DNA of 64,000 nucleotides, from the NCBI GenBank assembly GCA_963706285.1, contig CAVPLU010000009.1, forward strand, positions 1 to 64,000, written 5' to 3'. Both the position numbers and the translations under genes were made by a program. The DNA is from Candidatus Bathyarchaeota archaeon (GTDB lineage Archaea; Thermoproteota; Bathyarchaeia; 40CM-2-53-6). The notes below the pieces were generated by a model. The model searched no databases. It was not told where the DNA came from and worked only from the letters and a program-made list of their open reading frames with translations. This document shows positions 4,007-36,801 of this stretch, one piece after another; the stretch's first letter is position 1, and the number at the start of each line of letters is the position of its first letter.

Positions 4007-4140
4007 TGATGCGAGCATCGTAAATTGAACTCTTGATTGTGTGTGTGGGACCCTTGGTGCGGGCACCTGAATTTGAACCGTCGTTTTGGGTAATTGTGTG
4101 TGTGGTACGCTTGGTGCGAGCGTCCGGATTTGAACCGTCG
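4007..4140 (-). repeat. Three tandem copies of the tRNA-Gly-3'-like repeat (cores start at 4007, 4055, 4112)
   Basis: Minus strand of 4112-4136 = GGTTCAAATCCGGACGCTCGCACCA and of 4055-4079 = GGTTCAAATTCAGGTGCCCGCACCA, each followed by AG..(C)CACACACACAAT; 4007-4030 is more degenerate. Confidence 0.9.
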
Positions 4141-4267
4141 ATTTGCGTGTGTGCCAACGGCATAGGTGGAGACTGCCAGTGAAGAAAGATGGGGAAAGAA
4201 GTTTGCACGCACACGAAAGCTAATATCTCGATAGAAGTGACCGAATGACTGCCGTGGGGGTATCTGC

Positions 4268-4861
4268 ATGTCCTTCCTGAGGAGAATCAAAGATGGCATC
4301 ACCCAGCCCAAAGCCAAGATTGTGGTGCAGTTCAGCAAGAACAGCTTTGTGTTGGGGGAGAATGTTGAAGGCAATCTAGCGGTTTCATCAGATGAGGAGT
4401 TTGACGCCAAAGAGATAAGATGTGAGATCCAATCTGTGGAAGAAGCGAAAAGAATCAAGCTAGTCTATGATGAAACAGCCAAACGCGAAGTACCGAAAGA
4501 AGCCTCCGAGTCAGAAACTCTCTATTCTGCGAGACCGACGGTGACCGGTCCGCTACACTTGACCAAAGGCTTCTCGCAGACTTACCCGTTCAGCATATAT
4601 CTCCCAGCTGGGCTCAGACCCACATTCAAGAGCCTCGATTCGAAGATTACTTGGACATTCAAAGCGGCAATAGCTATTGAAGGCAGACCTGACGTAACCA
4701 GCCAGACAGTTGAAATCCAAGTAATTCAACCAACAACTCCTCAAGTAAAGGAGAAGGAGATCATTCGTGAAGTCGTCATGATACCCTGCAAGTACTGCGG
4801 GGCCCTGATGCCTCAAACAGACACAACGTGTCCGCGATGCGGCGCAAAAAGAACCGCATAA
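4268..4861 (+). CDS. Arrestin/SpoOM-fold protein with C-terminal zinc ribbon
   Basis: Beta-sandwich pattern (YPFSIYLPAGLRPTF...ITWTFKA); CKYC...CPRC. Confidence 0.7.
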   Translation: MSFLRRIKDGITQPKAKIVVQFSKNSFVLGENVEGNLAVSSDEEFDAKEIRCEIQSVEEAKRIKLVYDETAKREVPKEASESETLYSARPTVTGPLHLTKGFSQTYPFSIYLPAGLRPTFKSLDSKITWTFKAAIAIEGRPDVTSQTVEIQVIQPTTPQVKEKEIIREVVMIPCKYCGALMPQTDTTCPRCGAKRTA

Positions 4862-5203
4862 TAGACTGACCAGTGCAGCTGCAACCATTCGCAGTGTCCA
4901 CAACTGCTCTTCGAGTTCTCAAGTTACACCTATCGGTCTACGAGAAGACTGCTCATTCACACCTTGCAAGAAAGGCCTTACCCGCTCATGTAACGGAACA
5001 AACCCGGCCGCGATGCAACTACTCTATGGTGGCCAAATATCATCCTCTTGGCCAGGCAATGAGACTATACGATTCTGATCAATAGGTCGCGACGAAACGA
5101 AGCACCGAGACATGATGTGATGTTGGTGCAAAAACCGGCTTTGCTTGCGATACTCAATGTGTAAATCGGGCGTTGCTAAGTATGCGGGAAGAAGGGAGTA
5201 GCT

Positions 5204-5389
5204 TTGACTGAAGACAAAGGCGATGTTCTAGCTAAGATGGACACTGCGGCGGAGGAAGCGGAAAAAGACCTCGGGACTCTCGATCGGGCAGCTATTGAAA
5301 CTGTAGCTGCATGGTGGCTGAAGTGGTACATGAAAGCCGGACATAAACGCCTTGGCCGGATCATGGTAAGAGTCGCAAAGAGCAAGTAA
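5204..5389 (+). CDS. Small hypothetical protein
   Basis: 61 aa; GGAG ribosome-binding site; protein-like AAWWLKWYMKAGHKRLGR segment. Confidence 0.65.
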   Translation: MTEDKGDVLAKMDTAAEEAEKDLGTLDRAAIETVAAWWLKWYMKAGHKRLGRIMVRVAKSK

Positions 5390-5530
5390 GGTCCTCACCG
5401 TCACATTTCTTGTGACTGAAAGCCTTCTTCAGTTGACAAAAAGAACTCGTGAATCTACCTCATAGTCCAACGAGTGAGACTCTCTTGTCGACTTTTGGAA
5501 GATTATATTTCCGAGGGCCAGGTAGCATGA

Positions 5531-5670
5531 TGTGTGTGCCAGCTGGTGCGGCCGTCGAGAATTGGACTGTCGTGCGTCGTCTAGGTATTTTGTGTGTGGT
5601 GGTGGCTCTCTTGGTGCGGGCACCCGAATCTGAATCCTCATGGGGGCGTGTTTGGGTGTGCGCACCCCCA
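5531..5670 (-). repeat. Two copies of the tRNA-3'-like repeat plus one hairpin variant
   Basis: 5544-5572 TGGTGCGGCCGTCGAGAATTGGACTGTCG; 5612-5636 TGGTGCGGGCACCCGAATCTGAATC, both preceded by TGTGTGTG; 5641-5670 TGGGGG...GTGTGCGCACCCCCA. Confidence 0.8.
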
Positions 5671-6103
5671 TGAAGTCATTCTCTGTAGAAGTTGAAAGTC
5701 GACTGACAGGTTTGCCTAAGGATTCGAGACATCTGTGTACATTGTCTTTCCCGATCACTTCAGCGCTCATCTTCGTGTGGACTCTAGCACTGTCTAGCCG
5801 ATCTGATAAGGAGCCTTCCGGCTTTCCATGTGTAACCCGCCCTGTGGTAGTAATCATCGTAGTTGGAATATTGATGAAAGAATCCTCGGGCTCCCTAAAG
5901 CCGGCACGAGGGTGAAAGGTATTCCTAGAAAGATAGTGAGTTCGCCCTAGTTTTTTGCTACAGAATTGGCGTATATTGTGTAGGTTGAGCCACAATTGAT
6001 GGATCGCATTGAAGCTTTGAGCGAACGCAGAGATGCCGCTCATAATTGCTATGACAGTGAGTAACCACATATTCCAATCCGCACTCATGAACTTCTCATT
6101 CCT

Positions 6104-6352
6104 CTACTCTTCACTTGGCGCAGGCGTATCGGTAGTTGTTGACCTCTCGATGCATTCAGGGCCGATAGGGCCGCGGGGGGTCACTGTGATATGTGCGAGA
6201 TCGACGAGACGGGCGTGGCAGCAGATGCAGCGGATGTCGGATGCTTGAATGCCTTGTTCGTGTAGGGCTTCAATCACGGTTCGAAGGTGAAGTTCGGTTG
6301 GTGTCTCGCCACGGAGACGGGCGGTCGCTGGATCGTCCAAGTCACCGCTCAC
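6104..6352 (-). CDS. Small zinc-finger protein (DUF6011-like)
   Basis: CICCHARLVDLAHITVTPRGPIGPEC matches a CxxC...GPxC pattern seen in mobile elements. Confidence 0.55.
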   Translation of the reverse strand: MSGDLDDPATARLRGETPTELHLRTVIEALHEQGIQASDIRCICCHARLVDLAHITVTPRGPIGPECIERSTTTDTPAPSEE

Positions 6353-6763
6353 CTTGTGTTTGGCATCTCTTGCCGTGATTGATTCAGCCTCGTTCTCGTC
6401 TCTCTGCGAGCAGAAGGAACTCGTTTCATCCGGACGCTAGGATGAGGTTGCATGACTTGGGTGCTGGAGAATGCCAGAGGTTCCGAACGTCGTGCAGAGA
6501 GACTTCTTATCGCAATCACAATCGCCAAGACGAGGGTTTCTGACAATGCATCCACCTGTTTATGCACGTCTCTACACTATGAGACGTACGAATATATATG
6601 AGTGTCGGTACTGACGATATATTATTATACGCGTATAGGCAAATAAGCTCGGGAGTACGATGGAGTGGAGATCTCTCAGCTTGGCTGATGTTGAAGTTGA
6701 AGGTGAGGATCGACCGGAGACTATCCGAGCTGAGCGGGGAACTGACCGCTAGTGAGGTGAAAG

Positions 6764-7123
6764 ATGATGACAAGCAACGATGAGTTGAAGAAGTGGTTGG
6801 AGTCACGTTTCCAGAAGATTGAACAGCACATAGATGAACTTGAGAAATCAATCTCTGAAGAGAAACAATCGAAAGTACGAATCGCGTGGTACAGAACATT
6901 GCTAGGCATGACTGACCTCGGAGGACAAGTTGGCACCGAACAACTTGCAGGTCACCTAGGAATAAGCAGAAGCGTAATCAGCGAATACTTGAATCGGATG
7001 GAAGAAGAAGGCCTCGTGAAGAGAGACTTCAACGAAGACTCAACACAGAAATCACGCTACATCTGGCGAATAGACTGGAACTCGCTACCACCCGAAATAG
7101 CATCAAGACTCAAGAAAAAGTAG
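6764..7123 (+). CDS. Coiled-coil + wHTH transcriptional regulator
   Basis: GAGGTGA ribosome-binding site; TEQLAGHLGISRSVISEYLNRMEEEGLV. Confidence 0.8.
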   Translation: MMTSNDELKKWLESRFQKIEQHIDELEKSISEEKQSKVRIAWYRTLLGMTDLGGQVGTEQLAGHLGISRSVISEYLNRMEEEGLVKRDFNEDSTQKSRYIWRIDWNSLPPEIASRLKKK

Positions 7124-7297
7124 AGATCAAGTTACCACGACAACATATGCCGACAGATTCTTGCGGCCAATGATGAATACGCCGCAACCGGACGTATGCA
7201 AGTGATCTCATTGCGTCGCATGAAGTCACTCAGCATAAGCATTAAACCGAGAAATGGGGCATACTGGCTTAAGGAAAGGCTTCCTGAAGGTGAGATC

Positions 7298-7735
7298 ATG
7301 AAACCTAGTGGTTCAGATACGAACGCGATTGTGGAGATGTTGCAAAAGGCCCCCCTGTGGTCGGGTCTCACCGAGAAGGAACTGAAGGTCATTGCACATT
7401 CATTCAAAGAGCTCAAGTATGAGAGCGGCGACATGATCGTGCGCAAAGGAGAGGCAGGCATCGGCTTCTATCTCATAGCGGAAGGCACCGTAGAGGTTCG
7501 ATCAGACGGAAAAGTCCTCTCTAAACTCGGACCCGGCCAGTTCTTTGGCGAGATGTCAATCTTGGACAATCAGCCAAGGTCGGCAGATGTTGTGGCACTT
7601 GAGCCGTCAAGGTGCCTTGCCTTGACTTCATGGAGCTTCAAGAGTATTGTTTCCAACCATCCAAAGATGGCGTTGAAGCTGCTGCAGGAATCCGTTCGTA
7701 GAATGAGTATGAATACTCAGACCCTTGGCAATTAG
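7298..7735 (+). CDS. Stand-alone cyclic-nucleotide-binding domain protein
   Basis: FFGEMSILDNQPRSADVVA phosphate-binding cassette; start moved to ATG 7298 after GGTGAG. Confidence 0.9.
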   Translation: MKPSGSDTNAIVEMLQKAPLWSGLTEKELKVIAHSFKELKYESGDMIVRKGEAGIGFYLIAEGTVEVRSDGKVLSKLGPGQFFGEMSILDNQPRSADVVALEPSRCLALTSWSFKSIVSNHPKMALKLLQESVRRMSMNTQTLGN

Positions 7736-7826
7736 TGAGGCATTGCCGAAGAACGGAGACACGTTCGTGCTCACTAAGGAAGCTGCTTCGAAAGATGAGC
7801 GAAGACTCGTGTGCTTCGTTACTTAG

Positions 7827-8546
7827 CTAGGATACATCTATGATCTGACCGTCTGTAGAGAAGATTGTTCTAGGGAAGATGCGGGTTACTTCGCGCTTCT
7901 GTCTGGACGTGAGTCTTGGGCTGTGGACTATCACGAGATTTCGCACGCCAGCTCTTTTTGCAGCCCTAGCGGCTTGGGTCGGGGTTGAATGTTTGAGGCG
8001 CCTCGCCACCGCAGCGTTGGTCTCTGCAGCCTCGTGGATGAGGTAGTCGGCTTTCTTTGCGATTTTGGACAAGTCGTCATGCATCGTGTCCCCGCTATAG
8101 ACCAGTGTCGTTCCATCGATCTCGATTCTGTAGACTGTGTCCGGAGGCGAATGAACACCTCTTGCTTTCGTGCAATTGAACGGAAGACCGGTCAGGTCCG
8201 GCAGGAAATTGAGAACCTTGGAGAGGTCTGCTCTGGGAAACAGCTTATGGTAGAGGCTGTAGACTAGCCTCTTTAGGCCCTTGGGCCCATAGATCTTCAA
8301 GATACCTTTGTCTTTGTAAAGAAGACATTCCGCGAGAAAAACAAGACCAACCACATGGTCGCCATGTGTGTGGCTGATAAGGGCATGATTCACATCGTTT
8401 GGGGAGTAGCCATTTGAGCGGAGAGCATACACGATCTGCGGAGGGCAGTCCAGTAGTATCCGTGTGCTGCCATCAATCAGGATACTCGTGGAGCCTCGAC
8501 CGTCGGAGCAGAATGAATCGCCAGTTCCAAGAAAGACAAGCCTCAT
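7827..8546 (-). CDS. MBL-fold hydrolase, RNase Z/BN-like (possible cNMP phosphodiesterase)
   Basis: FLGTG, HTHGDH, YSGDT, IHEA, HST motifs. Confidence 0.85.
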   Translation of the reverse strand: MRLVFLGTGDSFCSDGRGSTSILIDGSTRILLDCPPQIVYALRSNGYSPNDVNHALISHTHGDHVVGLVFLAECLLYKDKGILKIYGPKGLKRLVYSLYHKLFPRADLSKVLNFLPDLTGLPFNCTKARGVHSPPDTVYRIEIDGTTLVYSGDTMHDDLSKIAKKADYLIHEAAETNAAVARRLKHSTPTQAARAAKRAGVRNLVIVHSPRLTSRQKREVTRIFPRTIFSTDGQIIDVS

Positions 8547-8710
8547 TGAACTCCCGCCTCCGAACCCGTGTATCTTGCCCGACGATCTGGTAATGGGAGG
8601 ATAAGAGTTACTCAGAGACGGCGCTCACATCGTTATGTAACAGAGAGTTGTGTGTTCCTTGTATCGTCGAATGTTCGTTTGCTTTCATTGATAGGGACTT
8701 GTCTTCGGAA

Positions 8711-9277
8711 CTAGCTCGGCAGCCTAGTCACCTTGGGCGAGCGCTCGGAGAATCTGATGAAGATTGAATTGTTAGTGACCTCGATTTTCGGCTCAATTCC
8801 GAGAGTTTCACGTGTTACTGTCTCGTATACCCGCTTCAGCTGATTGGAGTACTTCATGCCGAAGTCATGTTCGAGGGTGATAGTGTAGTTGCCGTCCCTC
8901 TCGTCAACCTCGCATCGAGTAGTTCCAACATACTTGGATAGCCTCTCACAAAAGGCGCAGACTGTCGCTGGGTCGACGCGTTTGTACCAGAACCTAATCA
9001 TTTCAAGAAATGTGGAAGGAGCTTCTTCCGTGGCAGTTCGGTAGGTTTGTTCGTCCATCGCCTCAATCATGCGCTTGTAAGTGGAACGTGGGACTGTGAC
9101 GAACCCGAACTTCTGCGTGTAACGATCCCACTCTGCGTACTTGGTCAAGATTGAAACAACCAAGGCGCTTACGGTCCTGTTTTCTGCGTTCGCATCCTTT
9201 TGGAGAAGTTCATTGAGCTGCTTTGGTATCCTTACACCTCTAAGGACCGTCTGAGTCTTTCGATCGACCAAATTCAT
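8711..9277 (-). CDS. RHH-type regulator with C-terminal ligand-binding-like domain
   Basis: TVLRGVRIPKQLNELLQKDANAENRTVSALVVSILTKYAEWDRY; resembles a TACK-archaeal RHH family. Confidence 0.75.
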   Translation of the reverse strand: MNLVDRKTQTVLRGVRIPKQLNELLQKDANAENRTVSALVVSILTKYAEWDRYTQKFGFVTVPRSTYKRMIEAMDEQTYRTATEEAPSTFLEMIRFWYKRVDPATVCAFCERLSKYVGTTRCEVDERDGNYTITLEHDFGMKYSNQLKRVYETVTRETLGIEPKIEVTNNSIFIRFSERSPKVTRLPS

Positions 9278-9386
9278 CCGTTACGTACTACGCTGACTAA
9301 CATTGTAACACTTATGGTTCGATCTTACCGGTTTAGTTTCCCGAATTCGCGATGCCGAAGAGGCAAGAGAATCGAAACATCGTCGT

Positions 9387-9824
9387 TTATTCGCTTAGTG
9401 CGCGGTCAGTGTTGCGCAGTCGACGGACGAACTCCTGTAGCATTTTGACTGCGATTCTAGGTCGCTCCGATATGAGCGATTTGAAGGACCAAGCGGAAAG
9501 AAACAAAACTCGTGATGGTTCAATGGCTACAACGTCAGCTGATCTAGGCTGAGCGTCCACGACGGACATTTCCCCAAAGAATTGTCCGGGACCGAGTCTT
9601 GAGAGGGTATTTCCATTTGATCTAATCTCTACAGCGCCGTCCAAGACAAGGTAGAATCCGGCTCCTTCTTCTCCCTTCCTGACGATGGTGTCTCCGCTCT
9701 CAAACTTGTGCTGCTTGGCCATCTTTACGATCGCCTTGAAGTCTTGCTTGCCTATCCCAGACCATAGAGGCGACCTCTCGAGCATATCGATAACGGCATC
9801 ATTTTCCGAGCTCAGAAGTTTCAT
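9387..9824 (-). CDS. Stand-alone cyclic-nucleotide-binding domain protein (paralog of 7298-7735)
   Basis: FFGEMSVVDAQPRSADVVA; collinear similarity to the paralog. Confidence 0.9.
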   Translation of the reverse strand: MKLLSSENDAVIDMLERSPLWSGIGKQDFKAIVKMAKQHKFESGDTIVRKGEEGAGFYLVLDGAVEIRSNGNTLSRLGPGQFFGEMSVVDAQPRSADVVAIEPSRVLFLSAWSFKSLISERPRIAVKMLQEFVRRLRNTDRALSE

Positions 9825-9916
9825 CTTTCTAATCTCACGAACTTCAAATCTACTTGTCCTTTAATGTTTGCGACCAGGTGGAAGAATGAACGGATTCCGG
9901 AACGCATTCTCGTCTT

Positions 9917-11242
9917 TCATACTTCCGATGCTTCTTTTCGTCTGCGCTTCAGAAGTGGAATTGGCATTGCGATGAAACCTACGGCCATCAACGCGAAGTA
10001 TGCAACCGACGCAAGATCGACGACAATGTAGGGGCTTCTTGCCTGCAAGATTCTCCCGATGGCGCTGAGTGCGTCTGACGCCATATACTGGAATATGATA
10101 AGAGTCTGGTAGGCAAGGAAGAGGGCAAATGCGATAGATAGCACTGCAAACCAAGTTAGGAAGGCTCTCTTTCTGGGTTCAAATTTCTCTTCAACAGATC
10201 CTTTGCTTCCAAGGAATCTCGATCTTAGATGATCGAAAGCCTCCTTTCTCAGGTTCGGTATGTCGGCAAAGTCCATTAACGCATAATACCCGTCCGTCTC
10301 GATTAGAGGGACGAAGTTCCATAGCGTCCAATAGAAGCAGAAGAAGCCCATCATCTTGAGGATTTGACTCGGCCAAATCAGATTGGAGAGAACTAGGATC
10401 GAACCTGCTAAGAGCGTGGATAGTGGTCCGGAAAGTGAAACCATTATCCTCATCTTCTTCGGAAGCACCCACGTGTCGCTCGTGTCCACATAGAACATGG
10501 GACCGAAATAGTACAAACCCGTACCAACCTCTCCCGGCATCACATCCCACAATCCCCCATAGTATGCCAATGTCGCCCCGTGCGCGATCTCGTGAACCGC
10601 TAAGACAGGGAAAAGAAGCAGATAGTAGTAGAACATACCCACAATCGACGAGCCTAGGATCTCGAAATTCGCCCTGCTGAAGAGAATCGACAAGAAATCA
10701 GATGCAAGAAGTACCGTGCCTACAACAATCAGAATCAGAGTAGTCCACAGCCCAACACCTTGTACGAATAGTCTTACCAATCTCCTCAAGCCTAGGAAGA
10801 ATTGAGAGTTCCCCCACGTGATCGTGAAATCCAACTCGAACGCTGAAACGAACCTCAGACGCTTCGACGAAACAGCCTCAGGCTCCGTTCCGGCCAAGAG
10901 GCCTTCGTCGCCTAGGAAGGAGATAGCATCACGGACGGTCTCGTAAGACGTCTCAAACTTGTCCTTAGTCTCGTCTACTATTTGGTTGACCGTATGTTCG
11001 CCGTCGAGCATCCACCAAATGGTAACCGTGTGGAAGTCGACGTTGTACTCTTCGCCTGTAATCTTACTCTTGAGGACGTACGGTACGCCGCTGGCGGGGT
11101 CTCCTCCCATCAGCGAGGCGTGAGAGGATCGCATGGGTTTGTAGGTTCGGTCTTCCTGTACTCGATGCAGGATATCCTCTCTCGACCCTAGCAATTCAGA
11201 AGACACTCTTCCAGACCCGTTGCTGTTCGGATACGTTGTCAT
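9917..11242 (-). CDS. PqqD/RRE-like domain + M50 membrane zinc metalloprotease
   Basis: N-terminal IWWMLDGEHTVNQIV...VRDAISFLGDEGLL (PqqD-like); HEIAH and NFVPLIETDGY M50 motifs; multiple TM helices. Confidence 0.85.
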   Translation of the reverse strand: MTTYPNSNGSGRVSSELLGSREDILHRVQEDRTYKPMRSSHASLMGGDPASGVPYVLKSKITGEEYNVDFHTVTIWWMLDGEHTVNQIVDETKDKFETSYETVRDAISFLGDEGLLAGTEPEAVSSKRLRFVSAFELDFTITWGNSQFFLGLRRLVRLFVQGVGLWTTLILIVVGTVLLASDFLSILFSRANFEILGSSIVGMFYYYLLLFPVLAVHEIAHGATLAYYGGLWDVMPGEVGTGLYYFGPMFYVDTSDTWVLPKKMRIMVSLSGPLSTLLAGSILVLSNLIWPSQILKMMGFFCFYWTLWNFVPLIETDGYYALMDFADIPNLRKEAFDHLRSRFLGSKGSVEEKFEPRKRAFLTWFAVLSIAFALFLAYQTLIIFQYMASDALSAIGRILQARSPYIVVDLASVAYFALMAVGFIAMPIPLLKRRRKEASEV

Positions 11243-11308
11243 ATCGAACTCTCACGATTGTGACGTTGGCGAGTTTGAATCATCGCTTGTGGATATGACG
11301 GTCACACG

Positions 11309-11336
11309 AAAAAACGAGGGCGGAGCTGTTCCCTGC
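11309..11336 (-). terminator. Putative terminator after the peptide ORF
   Basis: Minus strand AGGG-N10-CCCT-CG-TTTTTT just after the TAG at 11339. Confidence 0.4.
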
Positions 11337-11338
11337 AC

Positions 11339-11442
11339 CTATTGGGGCGCTCCGCACACCCAAGCTGTGGTGCCTATTTGGGATGCAGTAGCACAGTCTT
11401 GCTTTTTCGCTTATGCAACTTCGAGATCTTTGGCTTAGCCAA
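11339..11442 (-). CDS. Putative 34-aa precursor peptide (needs one extra base in an A5 run)
   Basis: GGAGG ribosome-binding site, TTG start; reconstructed MAKPKISKLHKRKKQDCATASQIGTTAWVCGAPQ; TATA-like TTATAT upstream; directly 5' of the RRE-protease. Confidence 0.5.
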
Positions 11443-11705
11443 ACATTTTCGCCTCCTATTCTATCTCTAACACATACCCTAGGCGTACGAGCGGATATAA
11501 GATACGTTCACGTCGTTACCGTAAGTGCTACGATGTTAGACAACGTGGAAAAATGATGGATGAGTTTGGTCGACCGAACTGAATAGAATCTCCTTGAAGG
11601 CGTACTCCTTTTCAAACTCAAGTTGCGTCGGATTCGGATCAAGATCCAGTGTCTTTCTTAAACGGTTTTATCTTCGCATGAGCTCGAACACCTAGGGACC
11701 TCGGG

Positions 11706-28856: not shown

Positions 28857-29269
28857 ATGCTGTCTAAGGCCGCTTTCGCGACCTCAGTCCCAATAAGAAA
28901 CATGGACAGAGCCATAAGATTCTACACCCGTACCCTTGGAGGCTCGCTGAATATGCGAGCCCAAGGTGAAATGAAGAACTACTGGGCTTCGGTAAATGTG
29001 GGTAAGGAAGAGTTTTGGCTGGTCAAACCCGAAAAACGTGAGAAGAGGGATCTCGCGTATTCAACATTCATCGTTAAAGACATCAAGAAAACAGTGGTCA
29101 GTTGAAGCGTAAAGGAGTGAAGTTTCTCCGCGCCGAAAAGATGGGGTCTGACTCAAGAATAGATGGGCCAATATCGTACACGCCTTACGGAGCTGGTGCT
29201 TTCTTCAAAGATTCCGAAGGCAACTTAGCCGCGATATGGGAGAACAAGATTCCTTTCCCTTCTAGGTAA
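28857..29269 (+). CDS. VOC/glyoxalase family protein (frameshift near 29100)
   Basis: IRNMDRAIRFYTRTLG...; shifted frame LKRKGVKF...FFKDSEGNLAAIWE. Confidence 0.8.
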
Positions 29270-29372
29270 CCTTGGGCGAGAGGACTATCAGGGTCGCCTT
29301 TACGCTCTAGGAGTGCTTGCGGAGAGCGCACTCCGCATGTCGCGGTGGGAACTTTCTAAGACGCAGACCTGC

Positions 29373-30506
29373 CTACAATCCAAACCAGCGCCTCCGGCGG
29401 CTGGATCCAAAGTACTGTTTATCATTGGCAAGGGCGGCGGAAGGTCCCTCGAAGCCCCCCGTGGGCACAGGCCCTGAAAGGAAGTCCACGTCCACGCGCC
29501 CGACGTTACCCCCCCCAAATTCGACGTAGCAGGAACCTGCCCCGGAGTAGGGCGGGGGCTGTTCGCCGCCCTTCACATTTGCGATCAGGGCGGCTGCCAC
29601 CACGCGCGCTGCTCCTTCGGAGAATACGCCCGCCTTTGGCGTTCCAACACTCGTCACGTCACCTATCGCGTACACGCCGGGAAAGCGCGTTTTGAGTGTC
29701 TTGGGATCCACCGGGATCCAGCCGCCCTCGGTCATGCCGCTTTCCGCAACCACGTCTGGGACGCGGTGCTTGGGGATGCCGAGGAACAAGTCGTAGGGCA
29801 TCTCGCTGGCATCGTCGAGGATGGCAACTCTGCGCCCTGGGTCGAGGGCGCGCACAAGCCGGTTGGGGATGAAGGTGATGCCCCGCTCGGCGAAGGCTCT
29901 GAGTAACGCCCGGGAAGAGGCGGGCGAAGGGGGGATTGGAGCGCCGAACGGCATAACCAGGCTGATCTCGCAGGCGTCGCGTACTCCATGTGCGCTGAGG
30001 TGATCGTGCAGCAATAACGCCGCTTCGCTCGGCGCGGGCGGGCACTTGAAGGGCGTTGAGGTTACCCCGACGATGGCGCGACCTTTGGTGAAGGTGGGGA
30101 GTACCTCCCGCAGGCGTTCAGCTCCGGCGAAGGAGTAGAATTCGTTGCCGCCTTCCCTCAGCCCCGGTGTAGCCTCTAGGTCATAGTCGGCACCCAGCGC
30201 CACCACCAGCACATCGGCCTCGTGAGTTCCGCGGTCGGTGGTAACGACTCGCCTCTGGGGGTCGATACCGGTAATCGTTTCCTGGCGGAAACGCACGCCT
30301 GGCTTGTCGATGGCACTGTAGGCGAAACGCACGGCTTCGGATGTCTTGCGTCCGAACATCACATCAAGCTTTGAAAAGCCGAAGAAAAAGGAATCATTCT
30401 TGTCGATCAGGGTAAGATCGAGGCGGTCGGGGAGCGCCTCCGACAACATCGCGCTCACTTCGAATCCGCCGAAACCCGCACCTAGGACAACCACGCGTAG
30501 TTTCAT
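29373..30506 (-). CDS. sqr: Sulfide:quinone oxidoreductase-like FAD-dependent oxidoreductase
   Basis: GAGFGG, FKCPPAPSE, YAIGD, PKAGVF, CYVEFG; visibly GC-rich. Confidence 0.8.
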   Translation of the reverse strand: MKLRVVVLGAGFGGFEVSAMLSEALPDRLDLTLIDKNDSFFFGFSKLDVMFGRKTSEAVRFAYSAIDKPGVRFRQETITGIDPQRRVVTTDRGTHEADVLVVALGADYDLEATPGLREGGNEFYSFAGAERLREVLPTFTKGRAIVGVTSTPFKCPPAPSEAALLLHDHLSAHGVRDACEISLVMPFGAPIPPSPASSRALLRAFAERGITFIPNRLVRALDPGRRVAILDDASEMPYDLFLGIPKHRVPDVVAESGMTEGGWIPVDPKTLKTRFPGVYAIGDVTSVGTPKAGVFSEGAARVVAAALIANVKGGEQPPPYSGAGSCYVEFGGGNVGRVDVDFLSGPVPTGGFEGPSAALANDKQYFGSSRRRRWFGL

Positions 30507-30873
30507 AATTTACCCCCGATTAGATTGATTTGATTTGGTTGCACAGTATAAGACTAACTTTCCTAAGATGCAAATCCATAATTCTGTACTGTTGTTCAGC
30601 GAAATTGCTGTCATCTGATTGTCCGGCAAGATTCATGCATCTGCTGAAATCAGTGCTTCTGTCTTCACCAATCCTCAATTCTGGTTGCCCCATTCAATGC
30701 GGATGAATCTTGGATGGGGATGTGCACAGAGACAGTCGTCGTCCGTCGCTCTTGGATTTCTGTGTGTCTGAACACCAGACTAATCGATGACGATTACGAT
30801 TCACCGTTTCAGGTTTTAGTCGTAAACTGGCCAAAAGTCACGCTTAGTAGAGATCACGATTAGGATACTTGGC

Positions 30874-32022
30874 TCACCGTGGGTTGGCCAAAATCAATGT
30901 TATGCTGGTTATAGTTTTCTTCTTTCTTACCGTGGCAGTCCAGCTCAACAGTTGGAGAACAATTATGGCTCCTGCGCCGGTGGCGAGGTAGATCTCGAAA
31001 CTGGTTGTGGTCCAGACTGCAATTACCGTCTTCGGGCCGTTCATTGTTAGCGACCCCTTCGGATTCTTGCTGCTGTAGTCGCCTTTCCATTCCACGAAAT
31101 CCTCTTGCATTCCAAAGACGCCTGCGGGGGAATCGACTGAGAATGTTGCTGTATCGCCCGATTTGTAGTATCCTGCGCCTTTGGGGTTTCCATAGTTCGA
31201 CAGTATCGTCAGCAGGAACATTGTGTCGAACTTTGCAACTACCTTGTGAGGTGCATCCATGATAATTACGAAGCCATTATCTGATCTTGAGGCACCATCC
31301 ACTATCCATCCGTTGAACACGTACTTTGTTCCACTACCATCTTGCACCTCAACCGGGACCGGAGAGATCGACGCTGACGATCCTCGAGAGAACCATCCAG
31401 AGGCAGTCACATCTGTGACGCCCGCCGGTTCAGTGTTCACATCCAAGTAGTAGGTAGTGGTGCTGGTAGTCGTGGTACTGTTGGTACTGGTGCTACTGGC
31501 GGTAGTGGTGGCAGTGGCAGTAGTGGTCACGTCTAAGTAGTGCATGTTGGGCGTAACCGTTACTTCGATCAATACTGGGATCCCTCGGATGACTAGTGCG
31601 TTGAAATATGACCCGGGCTCCTTGGGGGCGGTTATCTTGAAGAGGACCTTTATTCTTCCATCAGTTGGGTCTTGGTCTTGTGGAGAGTTGTCATCGACCT
31701 CCTGAGGGTCGAACGTGAACCTCGCGTTGTCACTCATATCAGACATCCATGCCATTTTGAAGGGAAGAATTCCGGCTGGATCTCGAAGCTCGGCTTCAAC
31801 GAGAAGAGTGTAAGGCTTTTCGCTCTCCACACTGACTTTGAGATGAACCAAATTAAGACGTGTGTTGGTGCCGTTTAACCAGATCCCAATACCGCCATTG
31901 TGACAGTAACAACCTTGATCATTCACCGGGTTTGAGGCTGTAATTTGGACGGAGTTGCCTAAGACTGTCGCCGCAAAGAATAGTGCGATCAAGCCAACTG
32001 TGAGCCTATGAAAGCGTGTCAT
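30874..32022 (-). CDS. Exported protein with CxCH motif, Thr-rich linker, InlB-B-like repeats and TM anchor
   Basis: Signal peptide; GCYCH; YVFNGW..DG and FVEWKGD repeats; C-terminal TM. Confidence 0.75.
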   Translation of the reverse strand: MTRFHRLTVGLIALFFAATVLGNSVQITASNPVNDQGCYCHNGGIGIWLNGTNTRLNLVHLKVSVESEKPYTLLVEAELRDPAGILPFKMAWMSDMSDNARFTFDPQEVDDNSPQDQDPTDGRIKVLFKITAPKEPGSYFNALVIRGIPVLIEVTVTPNMHYLDVTTTATATTTASSTSTNSTTTTSTTTYYLDVNTEPAGVTDVTASGWFSRGSSASISPVPVEVQDGSGTKYVFNGWIVDGASRSDNGFVIIMDAPHKVVAKFDTMFLLTILSNYGNPKGAGYYKSGDTATFSVDSPAGVFGMQEDFVEWKGDYSSKNPKGSLTMNGPKTVIAVWTTTSFEIYLATGAGAIIVLQLLSWTATVRKKKTITSITLILANPR

Positions 32023-32334
32023 CGCTCTGCCGAGAAGGATGCACGATGGAGAATCCTATTAGACTATATCTCTTTGTTTTGTGGGCCGCGATGCTTGGCA
32101 TGTATTGGCCTAGAGCCTGCTCGTGTTTTGGTGTTGCTTTGGGGTTGTCACGTGCTGGTATATTTGTGCTAGGATAGGAGTTGCTTTTCTTGTTTCTTAT
32201 TCTGTTTAACTGTAGCTGTTCCGCTGTACTTCGGTTACTGCTGTTGTAGCTGTTGGTATGAGGGTATTGTCTGCTAGAGATTTGTATCCTCGGAGGGTAT
32301 TTTCTGCTGGTGTTTGTTTTTCCGGGAGATCTTG

Positions 32335-32395
32335 CGGTGCCGGGCTTCCGAATTTGAACCGTCGCACTCGTCATTGAACTAGTGTGTGCGCACTC
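32335..32395 (-). repeat. tRNA-3'-like repeat copy plus truncated variant
   Basis: CGGTGCCGGGCTTCCGAATTTGAACCGTCG (32335-32364); AGTGTGTGCGCACTC (32381-32395). Confidence 0.8.
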
Positions 32396-32410
32396 CTACC
32401 GTAATTCATT

Positions 32411-33275
32411 TCACTGATTCGCAGACTTGCTTCTTCTGACCTCAGCCGGCCGCGTGGGAGGCCACCTAGCAGCGTCAAAATGTTCGAGATAGAAGTCCTT
32501 TGAAATTGCACCTGTAACTATGCCTTTCAGAATTGGCCAATTGTGCGGGATTGTGGCGAAGTAGATGTGCTGGATCGCCAGCCCAATCAACAAGAATGCA
32601 AAGAAGTCATGGGTCATGAGGAGCAGTTGCGATTGTTGCATAGTCAAAGAGGGGCATGGGTATCAGCCATGGCAGCGGGTCCCAGAAGTAGATGCCCGTG
32701 ATGCCCAGCGCTACGATTGAGATACTCAATGTCCAATGATAGCTCTTCATGAAGAAGTCGTACTTGCCTTCGCGGGGGTACTCTCTCGCGCGGCCAAGGA
32801 AAATCCTGGCCCGCTTCCTCGCATCAGCGATATCCGTTCTTCCGAACCAGATATTCGCCCAGCCCCGAACTACAGCTGTATCCCACACGATGTGGATGAC
32901 AATGAGCGCCAGCAGCGCCCAAACGAACGTCGTGTGCGTTGCGATCTTGGCACTGGTACTACTTATCCCAAGGAGCGACATGATGGCATCAACGGGTCCT
33001 GCTGGGAGAATGGTGATATTGCTCAGAGCTAGGAAGATCGAGACACCGGTCAGAGCCATGATGCCTAGGACCACGAAGTCGATCCAATGGAATAGTCTCT
33101 GTACGAGATCATAGGTCGTCACCTTATTTCTTGGGACGACGACAATCTGCTGCTGCTGGGGTCGCGTGTGAGTCCATCCTCTAACAGCCCATGCAAACCA
33201 GTGAATAATGCAACCGAATATGAAAAACAGAACGATGGTGAACGGAATCGCTGGTGCTAGAGCCACGGGTATCAA
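32411..33275 (-). CDS. Cytochrome b subunit (FdnI/HyaC-like), frameshift near 32640
   Basis: QRLFHW, H...HIVW, GKYDFFMKSYHW, THDFFA...HIYFA, EH. Confidence 0.8.
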
Positions 33276-33478
33276 CAGCTGGAAATTGCAGTGGACTCTC
33301 CTTTAGTGTTTAGGATTAGACGAGCCCCTGCATCAAGAGCGGCGACACGTGTCACAGTGGCTGCGATGAAGCGTGAGATTCAAAGGCAACGTCGTCTAAA
33401 ATAACTACCGTTGTCAAGATAGGCTGTTCGGAGATTCCTCCACCTACTCGTTGATGCAGGAGTCGTCGGTCCTCAATC

Positions 33479-33520
33479 TGTGTGTGGGTCTAGTGGTGCG
33501 CACCAGCCAACCCACACACA
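33479..33520. repeat. Palindromic (head-to-head) variant of the dispersed repeat
   Basis: TGTGTGTGGGT-CTAG-TGGTGCGCACCA-GCCA-ACCCACACACA: 11-bp inverted repeat and a perfect 12-bp central palindrome. Confidence 0.88.
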
Positions 33521-33650
33521 TCCCCCATGCGAGTCCAAAACCGATTGTTTGACCCCCATGAGAGGCACGCATTAGGAAGGCGCTACCTCTCTCGTAAAAT
33601 ACATGACCGAGGGCAAATGTTAAGTATTTCAGACGTTAGAAATAGTTTAC

Positions 33651-34004
33651 ATGGTGGAAGAAATGCGTAGGAACTTGATCGGTTACTTGGGATTCATGGG
33701 CTTCCTAGGTCTCTTGGGTTTGATTGTCGACAATCCCGGATTCTTTGGATTTTTCGGGTTCTTCGGCTTCTGGAGTTCAATGGGGGGCAAGGGTAGCGAT
33801 GAGAGAGTGGATCAGAACGTTAACAGGGCCTGCAGGAATGCATTCATATTCAGTATGGTCGCATCAGCACTCCTCTTCTCGTACATAGGGATTCTTCAAG
33901 CTGCAGAAGCGTTCCAGCTGGCAGTGTCAGTCGCAGTCTTGTTTGCTGGCGGCTTGACGATATTCGTTGCATCGTTCGTCTACTACGACAGGTTCAGTGC
34001 CTGA
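33651..34004 (+). CDS. DUF3796-like membrane protein
   Basis: [10 protein letters not shown]...FFGFFGFF...DERV..N..RA..NAF. Confidence 0.75.
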
Positions 34005-34015
34005 GAGTCCTCGAC

Positions 34016-34219
34016 ATGAAGACGAAGATCAAAGAACTGAGAGACAAGCGCAACCTTACTCAAGAGGCTCTGGCTGAGAAAGTGGACGTCACAAGACAGA
34101 CTATACTCTTCCTAGAAAAAGGAAAATACAACCCGTCACTGAGATTAGCCTACAAGATTGCCAAAGTGCTGAACTCGAAGATCGAAGATGTCTTCTCCTT
34201 TGAAGATGAGAGGCTTTAG
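34016..34219 (+). CDS. XRE-family HTH regulator
   Basis: [17 protein letters not shown]...[10 protein letters not shown]. Confidence 0.92.
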
Positions 34220-34324
34220 GAACTTGCGAATAATCGCTTGGCGAGTCTTTCTCCGAGAGATTGAGACAAGAGCGAAATCCCCTAACCCGTTGAGGTGGCT
34301 GTCGTCGTTCGTCGTTTCGTTTGA

Positions 34325-34358
34325 ATGTGTGTGCGCACCATGAAGACCATACACACAT
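34325..34358. repeat. Hairpin variant of the dispersed repeat
   Basis: ATGTGTGT-GCGCACCATGAAGACCAT-ACACACAT (8-bp inverted repeat). Confidence 0.75.
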
Positions 34359-34526
34359 CACTACCTCCCAAGGGGAAGGCGGAAACCGCATTGTGGAAGA
34401 CTTCAGAGCAATGTCCTTAGCCCAGTTGAAGAGTATTCGTAACAACGTGACATAGGTGCGGATCAGAGCGCGTTCGGCAACTCTTTTATGACTATGAATC
34501 CTCAGGGCCAGTCTAAGTGCTGAGAT

Positions 34527-35628
34527 GTGCCCGCCAAAAAGCTAACAATCGTATTTCTCCTAGTTATGTTCGCGCTTGTGCTCGTCGCGGAACCATTGCA
34601 CGTCCACGCCGCGTCATCCCTGGTCCAACGAAATTCGACTTGGTGCAACACCTTCCATAGCTATGATGTATGCAATGACGCTGCAACGCTCTCGGTTTCT
34701 TTCGCAAGCGGCGTGACAAGCGGGAATCTACTGGTCGTAGCTGTGACGGTTGGGAGTAACCCTCCGGTCACGGTAATTTCCGTAAGTGATTCCCGAGGCT
34801 CTTCATTCACTCAAGCTGTATCAGACTCGATGACAAACAATTATGCCTACGCCTACATCTACTATGCCATTCTCTCTTCCAGCGGACCTGACACGGTCAC
34901 AGCAACCTTCAGCGCGGTGCCCTACAAAGATCCTAATAGCTTACTGGGCGGCACGCGGGATCGCATACTTACACATCTTTGAGGTTTCAGGTGTCACCAC
35001 CGTAGGCATTACAACCGGCGAGGGCCACGGTTTGCTTTCCGGTGAGGGCACGATCTCCACATCATCCACTCCTTTTCAAAGCGGAGCCTTCCTCGTAGCC
35101 ATCGCAACTGAAGACATTTTGACCGGTAATTGGGCTGTTGGAACCGGTTTCACTCTATCTCCGAACCCACCCTACGATCAGTATAATGATCTTTCAATGA
35201 CTCAGTACTCGACTTCCGGAGTTGGCAGTCCAACCACGTTCCCTGCAACACTCTCAGCTTCCGGCGGGAATGACAAGGACTGGGTTGAAGTTGGTGCAGC
35301 TTTCCAACCAGGGGTTGTAACTGTCACCACGGTTGTGAGTACGGTGAGTACGGGTACGCTGAGTACGGGTAATCGCTTCATCCCAGTAACAACGGTGATT
35401 TCCTATTCAACTACAAGTTGGACTTCGGCTGGCGGCACAGTCACACAACTAGTGACCGAATTCGACACTATCTACGGCTATTTCATGAATGTCGTCGCTC
35501 AAGCAGTGGGCGGCTTCATTGAGGAGACAAACAAGCTTGGCGTCTTGACGACATGGTTCACAATACTCGGATGCGTCGCAGCCGTAGCATTCGTCGTTGT
35601 GCAACCGCGGAAGAAACCTGAGAACTGA
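34527..35628 (+). CDS. Secreted beta-rich surface protein with C-terminal anchor (frameshift near 34950)
   Basis: Signal peptide; GNLLVVAV...SVSDSRG; T-rich tail, VGG motif, TM, RKK. Confidence 0.75.
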
Positions 35629-35725
35629 TCTCATCTCGGCTTCCTCTCCTGCTCCGCGTCAAGAGGACCGACACGCTAAGGAACGCTTCACAATTTACCT
35701 ACCTGGCTCGTTGTTTCAGCCGTTC

Positions 35726-35751
35726 TGTGTGGGTCTACTGGTGCACACACA
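35726..35751. repeat. Hairpin variant of the dispersed repeat
   Basis: TGTGTGGGTCTACTGGTGCACACACA; left arm nearly the same as the 33479 copy. Confidence 0.75.
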
Positions 35752-35929
35752 ATATCTGAAATGATGACGAACGACTGGTAAGAGGACCAACAAAGTGACC
35801 AACTTCAGTGTAAGCGCTTCGTTTAGGTAGCGAAAGAATGAGGATAGGGATGCTCAGTTCTCGGGTTTCTTCCACGGCTTCGCCACAGCGAGCAGTTTGG
35901 TTGATCGAGACACCGAGCCCAGAATTGAG

Positions 35930-36133
35930 TTACTTCGGTTCTATTTCGAACTCTCCTTCGACTACTGCGCCGAACCCCTTGGCTATTCTGAGTGAGAGCG
36001 TGACCTTCGTGTTGTAGTCGACCTTGTGAACTTCTGCGTCTTTCAGGTCGACGTGTTCATGATTGTGAATTTCTCGTGCTTGATCTCCATATAATCTAAA
36101 CTTGACGATCATGCTAGATCGCTCCCATCGCAT
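35930..36133 (-). CDS. Small hypothetical protein
   Basis: 67-aa ORF; probable start MIVKF after GGAG. Confidence 0.5.
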   Translation of the reverse strand: MRWERSSMIVKFRLYGDQAREIHNHEHVDLKDAEVHKVDYNTKVTLSLRIAKGFGAVVEGEFEIEPK

Positions 36134-36377
36134 GTAGCCTATACCAGCACTCGTAACAGTGTGCTGTCTTGGTGAGAGCTTTCTTTTGTTGGTGACATTC
36201 CTTACATTCAGGCATCTTGCTTAACCCTTGAAGGTACATGAGGTTCATCTACGCCATATTACACTTGTCAGAAAGCATGGGAATCCTCCTGTTCTGCATG
36301 AGAGAACGAGTACGGTTGTGAAGCAGCTGGTTTGATTTGGGGTTGTGAGATGCCTGGAGATTGCTATGCCGTTGATT

Positions 36378-36444
36378 TGTGCGTGATTCTCTTGGGGCGA
36401 GCACCTAAATCTGAATCGTCAGAATGAAGTGTGAACCCGCACCA
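36378..36444. repeat. tRNA-3'-like copy followed by an opposite-sense CCCGCACCA half-site
   Basis: TGGGGCGAGCACCTAAATCTGAATC (36393-36417); GTGTGAACCCGCACCA (36429-36444). Confidence 0.7.
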
Positions 36445-36474
36445 ACAAGGGGGAACTAAATAGTTCGATCATGC

Positions 36475-36667
36475 GTTCTTGGTCACGGACTATTCCAGTT
36501 TTCATGATGTCCTCTTTCGTTTCTTTGACTAGGATGTCATTTTCCGGTTTGTCCAAGATCTCAGTGAGTGTGAAGTATCTCACAGAGGGATTATCTCTTT
36601 CTAGGAGCCATTCTGTCGGGTCCGCCTTCAAGATGGATCTCCAATCGCTCACCCTTCCAACCTCCAT
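36475..36667 (-). pseudogene. N-terminal fragment of a prenyltransferase/squalene-cyclase-repeat-like protein
   Basis: SDWRSILKADPTEWLLERDNPSVRYFTLTEILD...IMKTGIV, then breaks off; GGAGG ribosome-binding site. Confidence 0.6.
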
Positions 36668-36737
36668 TTCATCCTCCCTCAGCAGCCTCAAAAGGTGGCA
36701 TGATCCCTCCTTCACACTCGAGTCTGAGATTTCGTTT

Positions 36738-36801
36738 TGTGTGTGGGTAGGCTGGTTCGGGCGTCCAAATGTGTGGCCAGGATGAGTGTGAACCCGCGCC
36801 A
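36738..36801. repeat. Last repeat copy plus half-site; mirrors 36378-36444
   Basis: TGTGTGTGGGTAGGCTGGTTCGGGCGTCCAAAT; GTGTGAACCCGCGCCA (15/16 identical to 36429-36444). Confidence 0.7.

Follow-up and report, generated by a model that had tools for sequence, protein, structure and literature searches.

A repeat-punctuated island at a contig end

The first 37 kb of contig CAVPLU010000009.1 from a Candidatus Bathyarchaeota archaeon (GenBank assembly GCA_963706285.1; Bathyarchaeia, 40CM-2-53-6) form an island of gene segments separated by short repeats that resemble the 3' part of tRNA-Gly. We analysed this island as a candidate product of casposon-like transposons. The window is the 64,000-nt stretch at positions 1 to 64,000 of the contig, which is 155,032 nt long and is called C9 below. 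Its genome (G000) is a bin that is 89% complete with 7.5% contamination. Other genomes of the genus carry G-numbers, further contigs of G000 carry C-numbers, and related loci carry L-numbers. From the contig start to the chromosomal core, the island consists of about a dozen segments of 0.3 to 11.5 kb, punctuated by 11 repeat units of a single polarity and five junctions. About ten of the segments (4155..36724, with genes in both orientations within modules) are cargo lying between units or junctions.

Read on the minus strand, a unit has the form (A)CGAC-GGTTCAAAT-N6-GCY / CGCACCA-N6 / CCACACACA(A), where slashes separate three parts. The first is a leader of about 24 nt, made up of the TψC loop GGTTCAAAT, a variable T-stem strand and GCY, and it is this part that resembles the 3' part of tRNA-Gly. 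The second is a site of 13-14 bp, CGCACCA+N6, holding the last tRNA bases, CCA and 6-7 bases beyond. The third is the end of an inserted element, CCACACACA; a minority of units carry CGACGACGAA instead of the (CA)n part of this terminus.

All units of the window lie on the minus strand and were located by regular expression (regex), by a sequence profile or by both. Three stand in tandem at 3984..4154, with periods of 48 and 57 nt, the leader GGTTCAAAT-N6-GCY, CGCACCA+N6 and CCACACACACAAT, the third being degenerate; two more stand in tandem at 5520..5651 with a period of 69 nt. They are followed by a degenerate unit at 17113-17174 and a well-preserved one at 19230..19291. At 27626..27731, a weak inverted leader-like copy on the plus strand (27626-27649) faces a good unit (27667-27731) to form a convergent pair. 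The remaining three are a degenerate unit without a recognisable element terminus (32311..32376, by profile), another with the leader ATTCAGAT... and the site CGCCCCAAGAGAA (36366..36436), and the unit nearest the core (36725..36795), with the site CGAACCAGCCTAC and the terminus CCACACACAAAACG.

Junctions, detected by regex, follow the pattern TGTGTGTG / CGCACCA+N6 / CACACACA, and others of this type occur on contigs C3 and C16. Next to the degenerate unit, within the minus-strand feature at 17113..17214, positions 17187-17214 read TGGTGGTG / CGCACCAAGAGAC / CCACCACC, that is, an element end, a 13-bp site and the next element start. The same order is found at 35726..35751 (minus strand), which reads TGTGTGTG / (C)GCACCAGTAGAC / CCACACA. 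At 34326..34346 (plus strand), the junction TGTGTGTG / CGCACCATGAAGA is followed by a degenerate terminus, and at 15985..16003 (plus strand) a right-end-type junction, TGTGTG / CGCACCAAGGGAT, is oriented opposite to the units. A head-to-head palindrome at 33479..33520, TGTGTGTGGG-TCTAG-TGGTGCGCACCA-GCCAA-CCCACACACA, comprises two modules of site plus terminus with common CGCA ends.

The sequence-only reading of this stretch had reported at least 11 copies of a degenerate 23-mer, all minus-sense, and both statements held up. With up to three mismatches, the 23-mer matches six window sites (4055, 4112, 5612, 19250, 27691 and 36393), where 100 shuffles give an expectation of 0.00. The cores at 4007, 5544, 17137, 32335 and 36753 are more diverged versions, visibly of one unit type with the other six, and the orientation is the same in 11 of 11. 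A profile built on these copies retrieves all 11 at E-values from 1e-12 to 6e-07, a result that is circular for those 11. A tail had been described for most copies, and the regex CGCACCA-N4-9-CACACA (or CACCAC/CACGCA) trails eight of the 11. The reported match of 44/48 between copies about 15 kb apart is exact for the best ungapped 48-mer pair (4093 versus 19231). One further claim, an inverted copy at 27625, stood in part: a loose regex detects the leader-like match at 27626-27649, and the profile misses it. Copies had not been seen in 37.4-64 kb, and the profile gives a stronger result, with zero matches at E ≤ 10 from 36,795 out to 155,032 (about 118 kb).

Elsewhere in G000, the profile adds 31 copies (E ≤ 0.01), spread over seven other contigs. 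The total of about 42 matches falls into 13 clusters covering 3.1% of the genome, so the copies are not spread evenly. Seven tandem arrays occur in G000, with periods of 46-69 nt, and some of the other islands hold units in both orientations. When six hypervariable positions were left free, the pattern found 17 copies in G000 and was present in 12 of 41 related genomes (G000 included) and in seven of the nine other genus genomes, at up to 43 copies per genome. The reversed pattern, used as a control, gave no match in any genome searched. The repeat is a genus-wide family and is not specific to this island. We also considered a coding repeat, as the window periods of 57 and 48 nt are divisible by three, and rejected it on the periods of the other arrays (46, 52, 56, 58 and 69 nt).

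Resemblance to the 3' end of tRNA-Gly

Leader and site together keep an exactly tRNA-like geometry, with a 7-nt TψC loop, a 5-nt T-stem strand, a 7-nt acceptor strand, discriminator A and CCA. No 5' strand of the T stem is present, and the six positions that follow the loop are hypervariable; by eye, this 6-mer shows no T-stem pairing or covariation with the flanks. The TψC-loop box and CGCACCA are conserved and the positions between them drift. In units elsewhere the box is kept at 85-99%, in columns that were themselves selected by the regex.

Because the tRNA genes of this genome are mostly interrupted by introns, we scanned T arms and acceptors directly. Among host tRNAs, the one at C4:162292-162426, with the 3' end GGTTCAAATCCCGGCGGCCGCACCA, matches the unit best. 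We read it as a putative tRNA-Gly(GCC) from its anticodon loop, CTGCCAA; ARAGORN mis-assigns the gene. A second tRNA with the same 3' end, read as tRNA-Gly(CCC), lies at C13:56704, and 31 of 41 relatives keep this tRNA-Gly 3' end. The motif is thus tRNA-Gly-like, as had been proposed, and has a matching host tRNA 3' end. Inspection of its 3' flank shows that the tRNA-Gly gene of G000 is not occupied by an element. Within the window, ARAGORN reports no tRNA and Rfam no family at gathering score, in agreement with the earlier remark that the parent tRNA is absent. A parent tRNA at the island edge was considered and rejected: the boundary units share a duplicated flank of about 130 nt, but no tRNA 5' half accompanies it.

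Nearly all tRNA genes of G000 are interrupted, for example at C4:162292-162426, C3:23655-23763 and C8:50150-50281. Allowing introns raises the ARAGORN count from three tRNAs to 26; Rfam recovers 16, and the T-arm scan gives about 33 plausible 3' ends. The putative tRNA-Gly(GCC) gene seems to hold more than one insertion, and many tRNAs of this 89%-complete genome are still undetected.

Delimited elements with duplicated sites

Five elements, one in G000 and four in relatives, have a 13-bp site perfectly duplicated at both ends, beside short inverted termini. The duplicated copies are CGCACCA+N6, the 14th base being ambiguous, and the termini, CACACACA(C/A)... and ...TGTGTGTG, comprise only about 9-10 bp of (CA)n. 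The element at L022 (8.6 kb) carries cas1 and opens with a leader, its site CGCACCACTATAC directly downstream, and CCACACACAC...; it closes with ...GTGTGTGTG and an identical CGCACCACTATAC, after which the next CCACACAC... begins. L019 (8.7 kb) has the site CGCACCACTAGAC at both ends and carries a full-length solo cas1. Two smaller elements with perfect 13-bp duplications are L035 (0.9 kb) and C3:30962-32597 of G000 (1.6 kb).

The fifth element, L064 (1.1 kb), lies within a genuine, intron-bearing tRNA gene (RF00005, 47.9 bits) whose tRNA-Gly-type 3' end is the same as in the host tRNA-Gly. The order is tRNA 3' end, CACACACAAT..., 1.1 kb, ...TTGTGTGTGTG, and a second copy of CGCACCAGTCCAG; the cargo is one DUF998 membrane protein. 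Like this one, most elements are small and without cas1, and their cargo comes to one gene or a few unrelated ones. Examples from the small cas1-less elements are DUF998, a cation-efflux protein between two C10 units and a DUF4256 fragment. When left ends were paired with the nearest right end 0.3-30 kb downstream, N6 was identical in 4 of 14 pairs, compared with 30 of 1378 control pairs drawn across sequences.

Short inverted termini beside a 13-14-bp target duplication are the signature of a transposon, here with the tRNA-like block immediately beyond the duplicated stretch. Each repeat copy had been taken as a whole for a target duplication or recombination site. Duplication holds only for the CGCACCA+N6 part (13-14 bp), whereas the TψC part is an upstream leader and the CACACACA tail is an element terminus.

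Solo Cas1 and its association with the units

The contig begins with the left part of a multicopy element (1..933, plus strand), in which a 168-aa open reading frame (ORF; 10-516) is fused to a C-terminal remnant of Cas1 (515-832, with one in-frame TGA). PF01867 matches at C9:509-673 with 22.3 bits, and tblastn aligns 515-832 with residues 242-346 of the full-length relative L013 at 54% identity. The Cas1 remnant suspected earlier is therefore real, at C9:509-832. The PolB remnant also suspected was not found: PF03175 has no match in G000 and the four matches of PF00136 in G000 all lie off C9. The 168-aa ORF is unrelated to Cas1 and replaces the first 241 cas1 codons. An identical fusion point occurs at C10:48470-49389 (84% identity) and C14:89021-89602 (92%), which indicates that a defective element was multiplied.

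Searching from the window remnant to L013, and from there onward, led to 20 cas1 loci in Bathyarchaeia metagenome-assembled genomes (MAGs). At least 94% of the Cas1 protein is covered in 8 of the 20, and several genomes hold multiple full-length and truncated copies. The full-length solo Cas1 of relatives is 403-425 aa long, with ORFs for instance at L022:7335-8567 and L018:10001-11215, and a small winged helix-turn-helix (HTH) gene usually precedes it. A unit lies downstream of cas1 in 15 of the 20 loci, and the nearest unit points toward cas1 in 14 of these 15. The three truncated cas1 copies in G000 show this arrangement too. Among solved structures, the Cas1 of L022 best matches PDB 6OPM (E 7e-71, residues 9-404 of 410), while the best CRISPR (clustered regularly interspaced short palindromic repeats) Cas1 reaches 3e-25. 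The entry 6OPM occurs in the paper on the Methanosarcina mazei casposase.

Truncated cas1 copies recur (window 515-832; C10:48972-49331; C14:89523-89606; L025-L036), and many start near residue 242-258 of about 405 aa. The C10 fragment is an intact 139-aa ORF (L076:1476-1895). Such a stand-alone fragment, with the end of the catalytic domain and the HTH region, might serve as a regulator or inhibitor of transposition. At L020 (9076-14300), the cas1 island spans only about 5 kb and is set among core replication genes: PolB and arginase flank it to one side, the primase large subunit and PCNA to the other. It is a compact case from which the minimal autonomous element might be defined.

A conserved docking site and exchangeable cargo

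At its right end, the island meets a chromosomal flank conserved among the genus genomes (37370..37430, minus strand; GTTTAAG.TTTCAA...). In G008, G006, G003 and G009, this flank has a unit of like polarity at a distance of 50-170 nt; the unit at that exact spot in G000 is decayed, and G001 shares the first unit. The docking site is accordingly present in five of five informative genomes, among nine of the genus. Between the first unit and the flank lies a thioesterase gene (36826..37269, minus strand; Pfam 4HBT_2), which in G008, G004 and G002 is found on contigs other than the one with ThiI. By this distribution, the thioesterase gene appears to behave as island cargo.

Comparison across the genus places the variation at the units. 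In G001 (93% identical), 2.4 kb stands in place of 9.3 kb of the window (27.4-36.7 kb): collinearity stops at 36796 and homology resumes at 27414, near the 27.6-kb units. Many contigs of G008, G002 and G004 hold counterparts of the cargo segments that are 79-94% identical, compared with 70-75% for the adjacent core. Several match ends coincide with element termini. One segment common to relatives (89-91% identity) stops at 5531, an element terminus, and another common to G008 and G004 (89-91%) ends at 36746, the boundary between terminus and site. Segments between copies thus vary among relatives with breakpoints at or near the copies, as had been anticipated. Match ends that fall on termini, together with the clustering of copies, show that the copies are neither evenly spread nor unrelated to the breakpoints. 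A single hotspot at one parent tRNA does not describe the array, as G000 has 13 clusters and its tRNA-Gly gene is unoccupied. The upstream flank of the 19.25-kb unit (19291-22120) recurs beside a unit at C14:93401-96203 with 80% identity.

No public sequencing run contains more than a 0.13 share of the words sampled from 27500-37400, and none of the matching runs is an RNA run. Contigs from four runs show joints that end at units or junctions (27714/5, 32364, 33479, 34326, 36422, 36738 and 36785). Their matching sides are only 18-26 nt long at 90% likeness, and we read them as cross-matches to the repeat in other contexts and not as rearrangement of this locus.

A probable casposon-like origin of the units

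We consider it probable that the units are integration modules of a Bathyarchaeia lineage of casposon-like transposons. For M. mazei casposons, PMC4779613 and PMC6977970 describe a 14-bp duplication with an invariant 5'-CGCA that overlaps the last 4 bp of a tRNA-Leu gene. They also describe a casposase that needs about 30 bp of upstream tRNA sequence and has an essential C-terminal HTH. Tandem M. mazei casposons share one duplication (PMC4779613). In Aciduliprofundum boonei, the minimal target is a 15-bp duplicated segment plus 18 bp comprising the tRNA TψC loop, according to PMC5137440, and only the five terminal 3' residues of that casposon are reported to be critical. Judged by its sequence, the Bathyarchaeia unit reproduces this family-2 target design point by point. 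As CCA is encoded in the gene in Bathyarchaeia, it falls within the duplicated site.

The likeness to the family-2 casposons MetMaz and A. boonei extends to a Cas1 that has a C-terminal extension, is longer than the CRISPR protein and has 6OPM as its best solved relative, and probably to a tRNA 3'-end target with an upstream TψC-loop leader, seen here in one unambiguous insertion into a tRNA gene (L064). It also covers a 13-14-bp duplication that begins with CGCA, inverted termini and tandem insertions with one common duplication. The differences are equally distinct. The Bathyarchaeia elements lack PolB in or beside them, their termini are about 9-10 bp of (CA)n instead of the 31 bp of M. mazei, and their target is tRNA-Gly, with a gene-encoded CCA inside the duplication, in another host phylum. 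Small cas1-less cargo elements are abundant, and the tRNA-like leader has been multiplied to dozens per genome, with tandem units of about 50 nt. Of the features by which casposons are recognised, Cas1, inverted repeats and a CGCA duplication are present and PolB is absent; the system functions like family-2 casposons yet falls outside the family on that one point.

Since the target, the CGCA-initiated duplication and the leader all fit family-2 casposons, the island looks like a casposase-built pile-up at a genus-conserved hotspot. In the mechanism we envisage, a solo Cas1 of 405-425 aa with a family-2-type C-terminal extension would recognise the leader and join the inverted termini CACACACA...TGTGTGTG to both sides of the site, which would thereby be duplicated. 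Adjacent landings would leave TGTGTGTG / site / CACACACA junctions. As most elements lack cas1 and polymerase and carry only one to a few cargo genes, they would have to be mobilised in trans. The 37-kb island would then be about a dozen such elements and their fragments, in one polarity, beside a chromosomal docking site conserved in the genus. A casposase had been named earlier as a possible builder, and the perfect duplications, the link with cas1 and the 6OPM match make it the most likely one; that this particular Cas1 reads the leader and carries out the joining is what we infer from these associations.

Several observations weigh against this interpretation. The profile was derived from the window copies and the regex classes were defined by the analyst, so bias is possible, and given the 7.5% contamination some paralogous loci may derive from a co-binned strain. 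No element of the window has an identical pair of duplications; the 2-kb segment 17215-19236, for instance, is flanked by CGCACCAAGTGTA on one side and by the non-identical CGCACCAAGAGAC on the other. Around seven cas1 loci, no inverted repeats longer than the short termini were found. Nucleotide similarity among cas1 copies stops at the gene borders, so the association of cas1 with termini rests on two delimited elements and the polarity statistic. No full-length cas1 was found in G000, only C-terminal remnants, and the data give no sign of current mobility of the window elements. Occupied tRNA-Gly genes are rare (one clear and two probable cases, L053 and L059, among 28 readable 3' flanks), and one of 31 other tRNAs ending in CCCGCACCA also has a terminus-like flank.

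The lack of a polymerase is a further difficulty, as PMC6452270 calls PolB universal in casposons. ORFs of at least 100 aa in L022 and L019, the largest of them no longer than 425 aa, contain no PolB domain. Five loci with full-length cas1 contain 82 ORFs that reach 110 aa, and the only PolB among them is the one in L020, which lies among core genes outside the element boundary. Finally, a simple insertion duplicates the site only, so the abundant leader copies need another explanation.

One tentative explanation is that the elements carry docking sites of their own. The left ends of several elements (L064, L019 and C3) have a leader-like box 12-40 nt from the terminus, and L019 contains a complete inner unit within an element bounded by identical duplications. 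Insertion into a docking site within an earlier left end would leave tandem stubs of about 50 nt. Under strict nesting, CGCACCAATGGTA, which is the site of the inner unit of L019, should be found again behind a right end. No such copy exists there, and CGCACCATGAGTA comes closest. We regard carried docking sites and nested insertion as conceivable, with the odds somewhat against them. Slightly more doubtful is the wider proposal, also inferred, that a polymerase-less casposase runs a natural gene-cassette system, in which cargo would be shuffled among tRNA-Gly-like pads that the elements carry and multiply. Under that proposal, tandem units of about 50 nt, each with a leader, a 13-14-bp site and a (CA)n stub, would record repeated insertions into earlier left ends.

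Alternative explanations

The best-surviving alternative, although an unlikely one, is a family resembling miniature inverted-repeat transposable elements (MITEs) or insertion sequences (ISs) that is moved by another, unrecognised transposase, with cas1 as cargo or as an island neighbour. It would account for the absence of cas1 from most elements, the very short termini, the many ORFs of delimited elements without a Pfam family and the lack of flanking nucleotide similarity around cas1 copies. However, the two largest perfectly duplicated elements (L022 and L019) both carry a full-length cas1, and the polarity of units relative to cas1 holds in 14 of 15 loci. The TψC-leader target, the duplication length and the CGCA start fit experimentally defined casposase behaviour, and duplications of 13-14 bp are unusual among IS families.

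Somewhat less probable again are landing pads kept by the host, that is, decoy tRNA-Gly ends that steer casposons away from the real genes or collect useful cargo. The real tRNA-Gly gene is indeed unoccupied while 42 decoy-like units exist, the docking site recurs at the same chromosomal place in all five informative genomes, and the TψC box and CGCACCA are conserved with drift between them. But such conservation would look no different if continued use and copying were confined to those copies that the casposase still recognises. Identically duplicated elements such as L019 also enclose many of the units, which therefore travel with them.

Serial integration of plasmids or viruses into a tRNA-Gly gene by a tyrosine integrase, with the units as attL/attR relics, is the classical kind of gene capture in archaea and is very improbable here. 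Integrative elements of the SSV and pNOB8 type at archaeal tRNA genes recombine conservatively, lack termini, duplicate nothing beyond the att core and normally retain the integrase gene or its halves. As here, direct repeats that copy a tRNA 3' end punctuate their islands of foreign genes. In favour of this reading, integrases usually target the 3' part of tRNAs, which the unit reproduces, the window copies are direct repeats in one orientation, and PMC4779613 has the M. mazei tRNA-Leu serving both casposons and integrase elements. Against this, PF00589 has no match (E ≤ 0.01) in the whole of G000 and is detected in 14 of 14 control genomes, and neither an integrase gene nor its halves were seen here. 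No parent tRNA stands at either island end, the host tRNA-Gly gene is unoccupied, and the units form 13 clusters instead of marking a tRNA gene or two. Inverted termini, 13-bp duplications and TGTGTGTG / site / CACACACA junctions are not outcomes of conservative site-specific recombination. The tyrosine integrase offered earlier as a builder thus finds no support, as terminus plus duplication is a transposon signature and not an att signature.

Barely credible is a role for the units as small functional genes or as signals in RNA, such as split tRNA-Gly 3' pieces or 3'-end processing signals of cassettes: the intron-bearing tRNA genes of G000 (ARAGORN 3 versus 26; Rfam 16) and the exact tRNA geometry described above would suit it, but the T-stem 5' strand is absent, the 3' strand varies freely as a hypervariable segment with no covarying partner, intact putative tRNA-Gly(GCC) and tRNA-Gly(CCC) genes exist elsewhere in G000, neither ARAGORN nor Rfam (at gathering score) finds a tRNA or RNA family in the window, and units form tandem arrays with 46-69-nt periods and, in other islands, both orientations.

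Relation to CRISPR, integrons and Tn7

The sequence-only reading had likened the array to CRISPR or an integron. The analogy of mechanism stands (a leader, a short repeat and polar insertion), whereas membership in either system does not. With CRISPR Cas1-Cas2 the island would share a Cas1-type enzyme that inserts beside a leader and duplicates a short repeat, polar growth and an array of repeats and inserts. It differs in that the inserts are gene-sized with termini of their own or are stubs of about 35-45 nt, and the 13-14-bp repeat is only half conserved, with spacing from 46 nt to 11.5 kb, whereas CRISPR arrays have regular repeats of 24-47 bp, unique spacers and a neighbouring cas operon. 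Neither Cas2 nor effector genes nor evidence of transcript processing were seen here, and the truncated cas1 is the only cas gene among the Pfam matches of the window.

Integrons likewise consist of modules of one to a few genes, with short recombination sites in the same orientation and accessory cargo that varies among strains. The modules here, however, are transposons, bounded by inverted termini and duplicated targets, and their genes run in both orientations. Integrons are marked by an IntI integrase, attI, and attC sites of conserved folded structure; G000 has no tyrosine recombinase (PF00589), and the units are not attC-like palindromes by sequence, a judgement made without an attC covariance model. 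Tn7 at attTn7 is alike in that repeated site-specific insertion by a conserved gene leaves islands of partly inactivated elements; it differs in its unrelated machinery and protein-directed target (glmS), which is not tRNA-like. PMC4779613 makes the Tn7 comparison for tandem casposons.

The CRISPR adaptation machinery presumably descends from casposons, which have been described as rare, large and always polymerase-bearing. The lineage found here appears to have shed the polymerase, spawned tiny cargo carriers and multiplied a tRNA-like docking site, with multi-element islands at conserved hotspots in a widespread group of uncultured archaea. If this is correct, casposases would be drivers of accessory-genome turnover and not mere curiosities. 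Should the tandem units arise by repeated insertion into earlier left ends, the stub arrays, with a leader, short duplicated repeats and short inserts, would be a living analogue of the proposed step from casposon to CRISPR array. They offer a concrete natural substrate for testing how a transposon target could become a CRISPR-like array. The three-part unit offers a compact marker for locating such islands in MAGs. In the literature searched (main texts of a limited collection), no text paired "casposon" with "Bathyarchaeia" and one review contained both "casposon" and "Bathyarchaeota". Within that literature, cas1-less cargo elements, multiplied tRNA-like leaders, multi-element hotspot islands and this host phylum are not described.

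Cargo and neighbouring features

Pfam assigns the cargo of the window to diverse families. They include an arrestin_N protein, two proteins that bind cyclic nucleotide monophosphates (cNMP), a metallo-beta-lactamase (MBL)-fold hydrolase, two genes joining a cyclase to tetratricopeptide repeats (TPR; one of them broken) and a propeller resembling Vgb lyase. Other members are an FMN reductase, an M6 peptidase, UbiA, half of a PvlArgDC, a cupredoxin, an AHSA1 fragment, a glyoxalase, a Pyr_redox protein and a cytochrome b561. The cargo is often fragmentary: PvlArgDC covers only profile positions 58-161 (25208-25573) and AHSA1 only 40-125 (28107-28436), consistent with decay or with truncation at element borders.

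The longest segment (5652-17112, 11.5 kb) holds the two cNMP-binding proteins, the MBL-fold hydrolase and the two adenylate/guanylate cyclase-TPR genes, one of which is split at 14032-15977, together with a 441-aa ORF of no assigned family. When PADLOC was run on 26 island proteins, only the cNMP-binding domains of two proteins matched Pycsar effector/cyclase models, at the domain level only. In the core beyond the island, ThiI appears to be split between two overlapping frames, of which one (37746-38492) holds a THUMP/ferredoxin-like part and the other (38212-38907) the ThiI domain. This split could reflect a frameshift, a pseudogene or an assembly error.

Beside the 19.25-kb unit, at 19302-19397, lies a sequence of 50-97 nt that recurs at 80-98% identity on at least eight other contigs of G000 (C1, C3, C4, C8, C10, C12 and C15 among the carriers) and also in G008. 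The surrounding 19295-19400 folds no better than its shuffles on either strand. The propeller gene resembling Vgb lyase (17333-18757) contains internal repeats of about 125 and 250 nt with 74-76% identity at 17520-18388, and a stretch related to it occurs at C3:33823-34433, beside the units of the C3 island.

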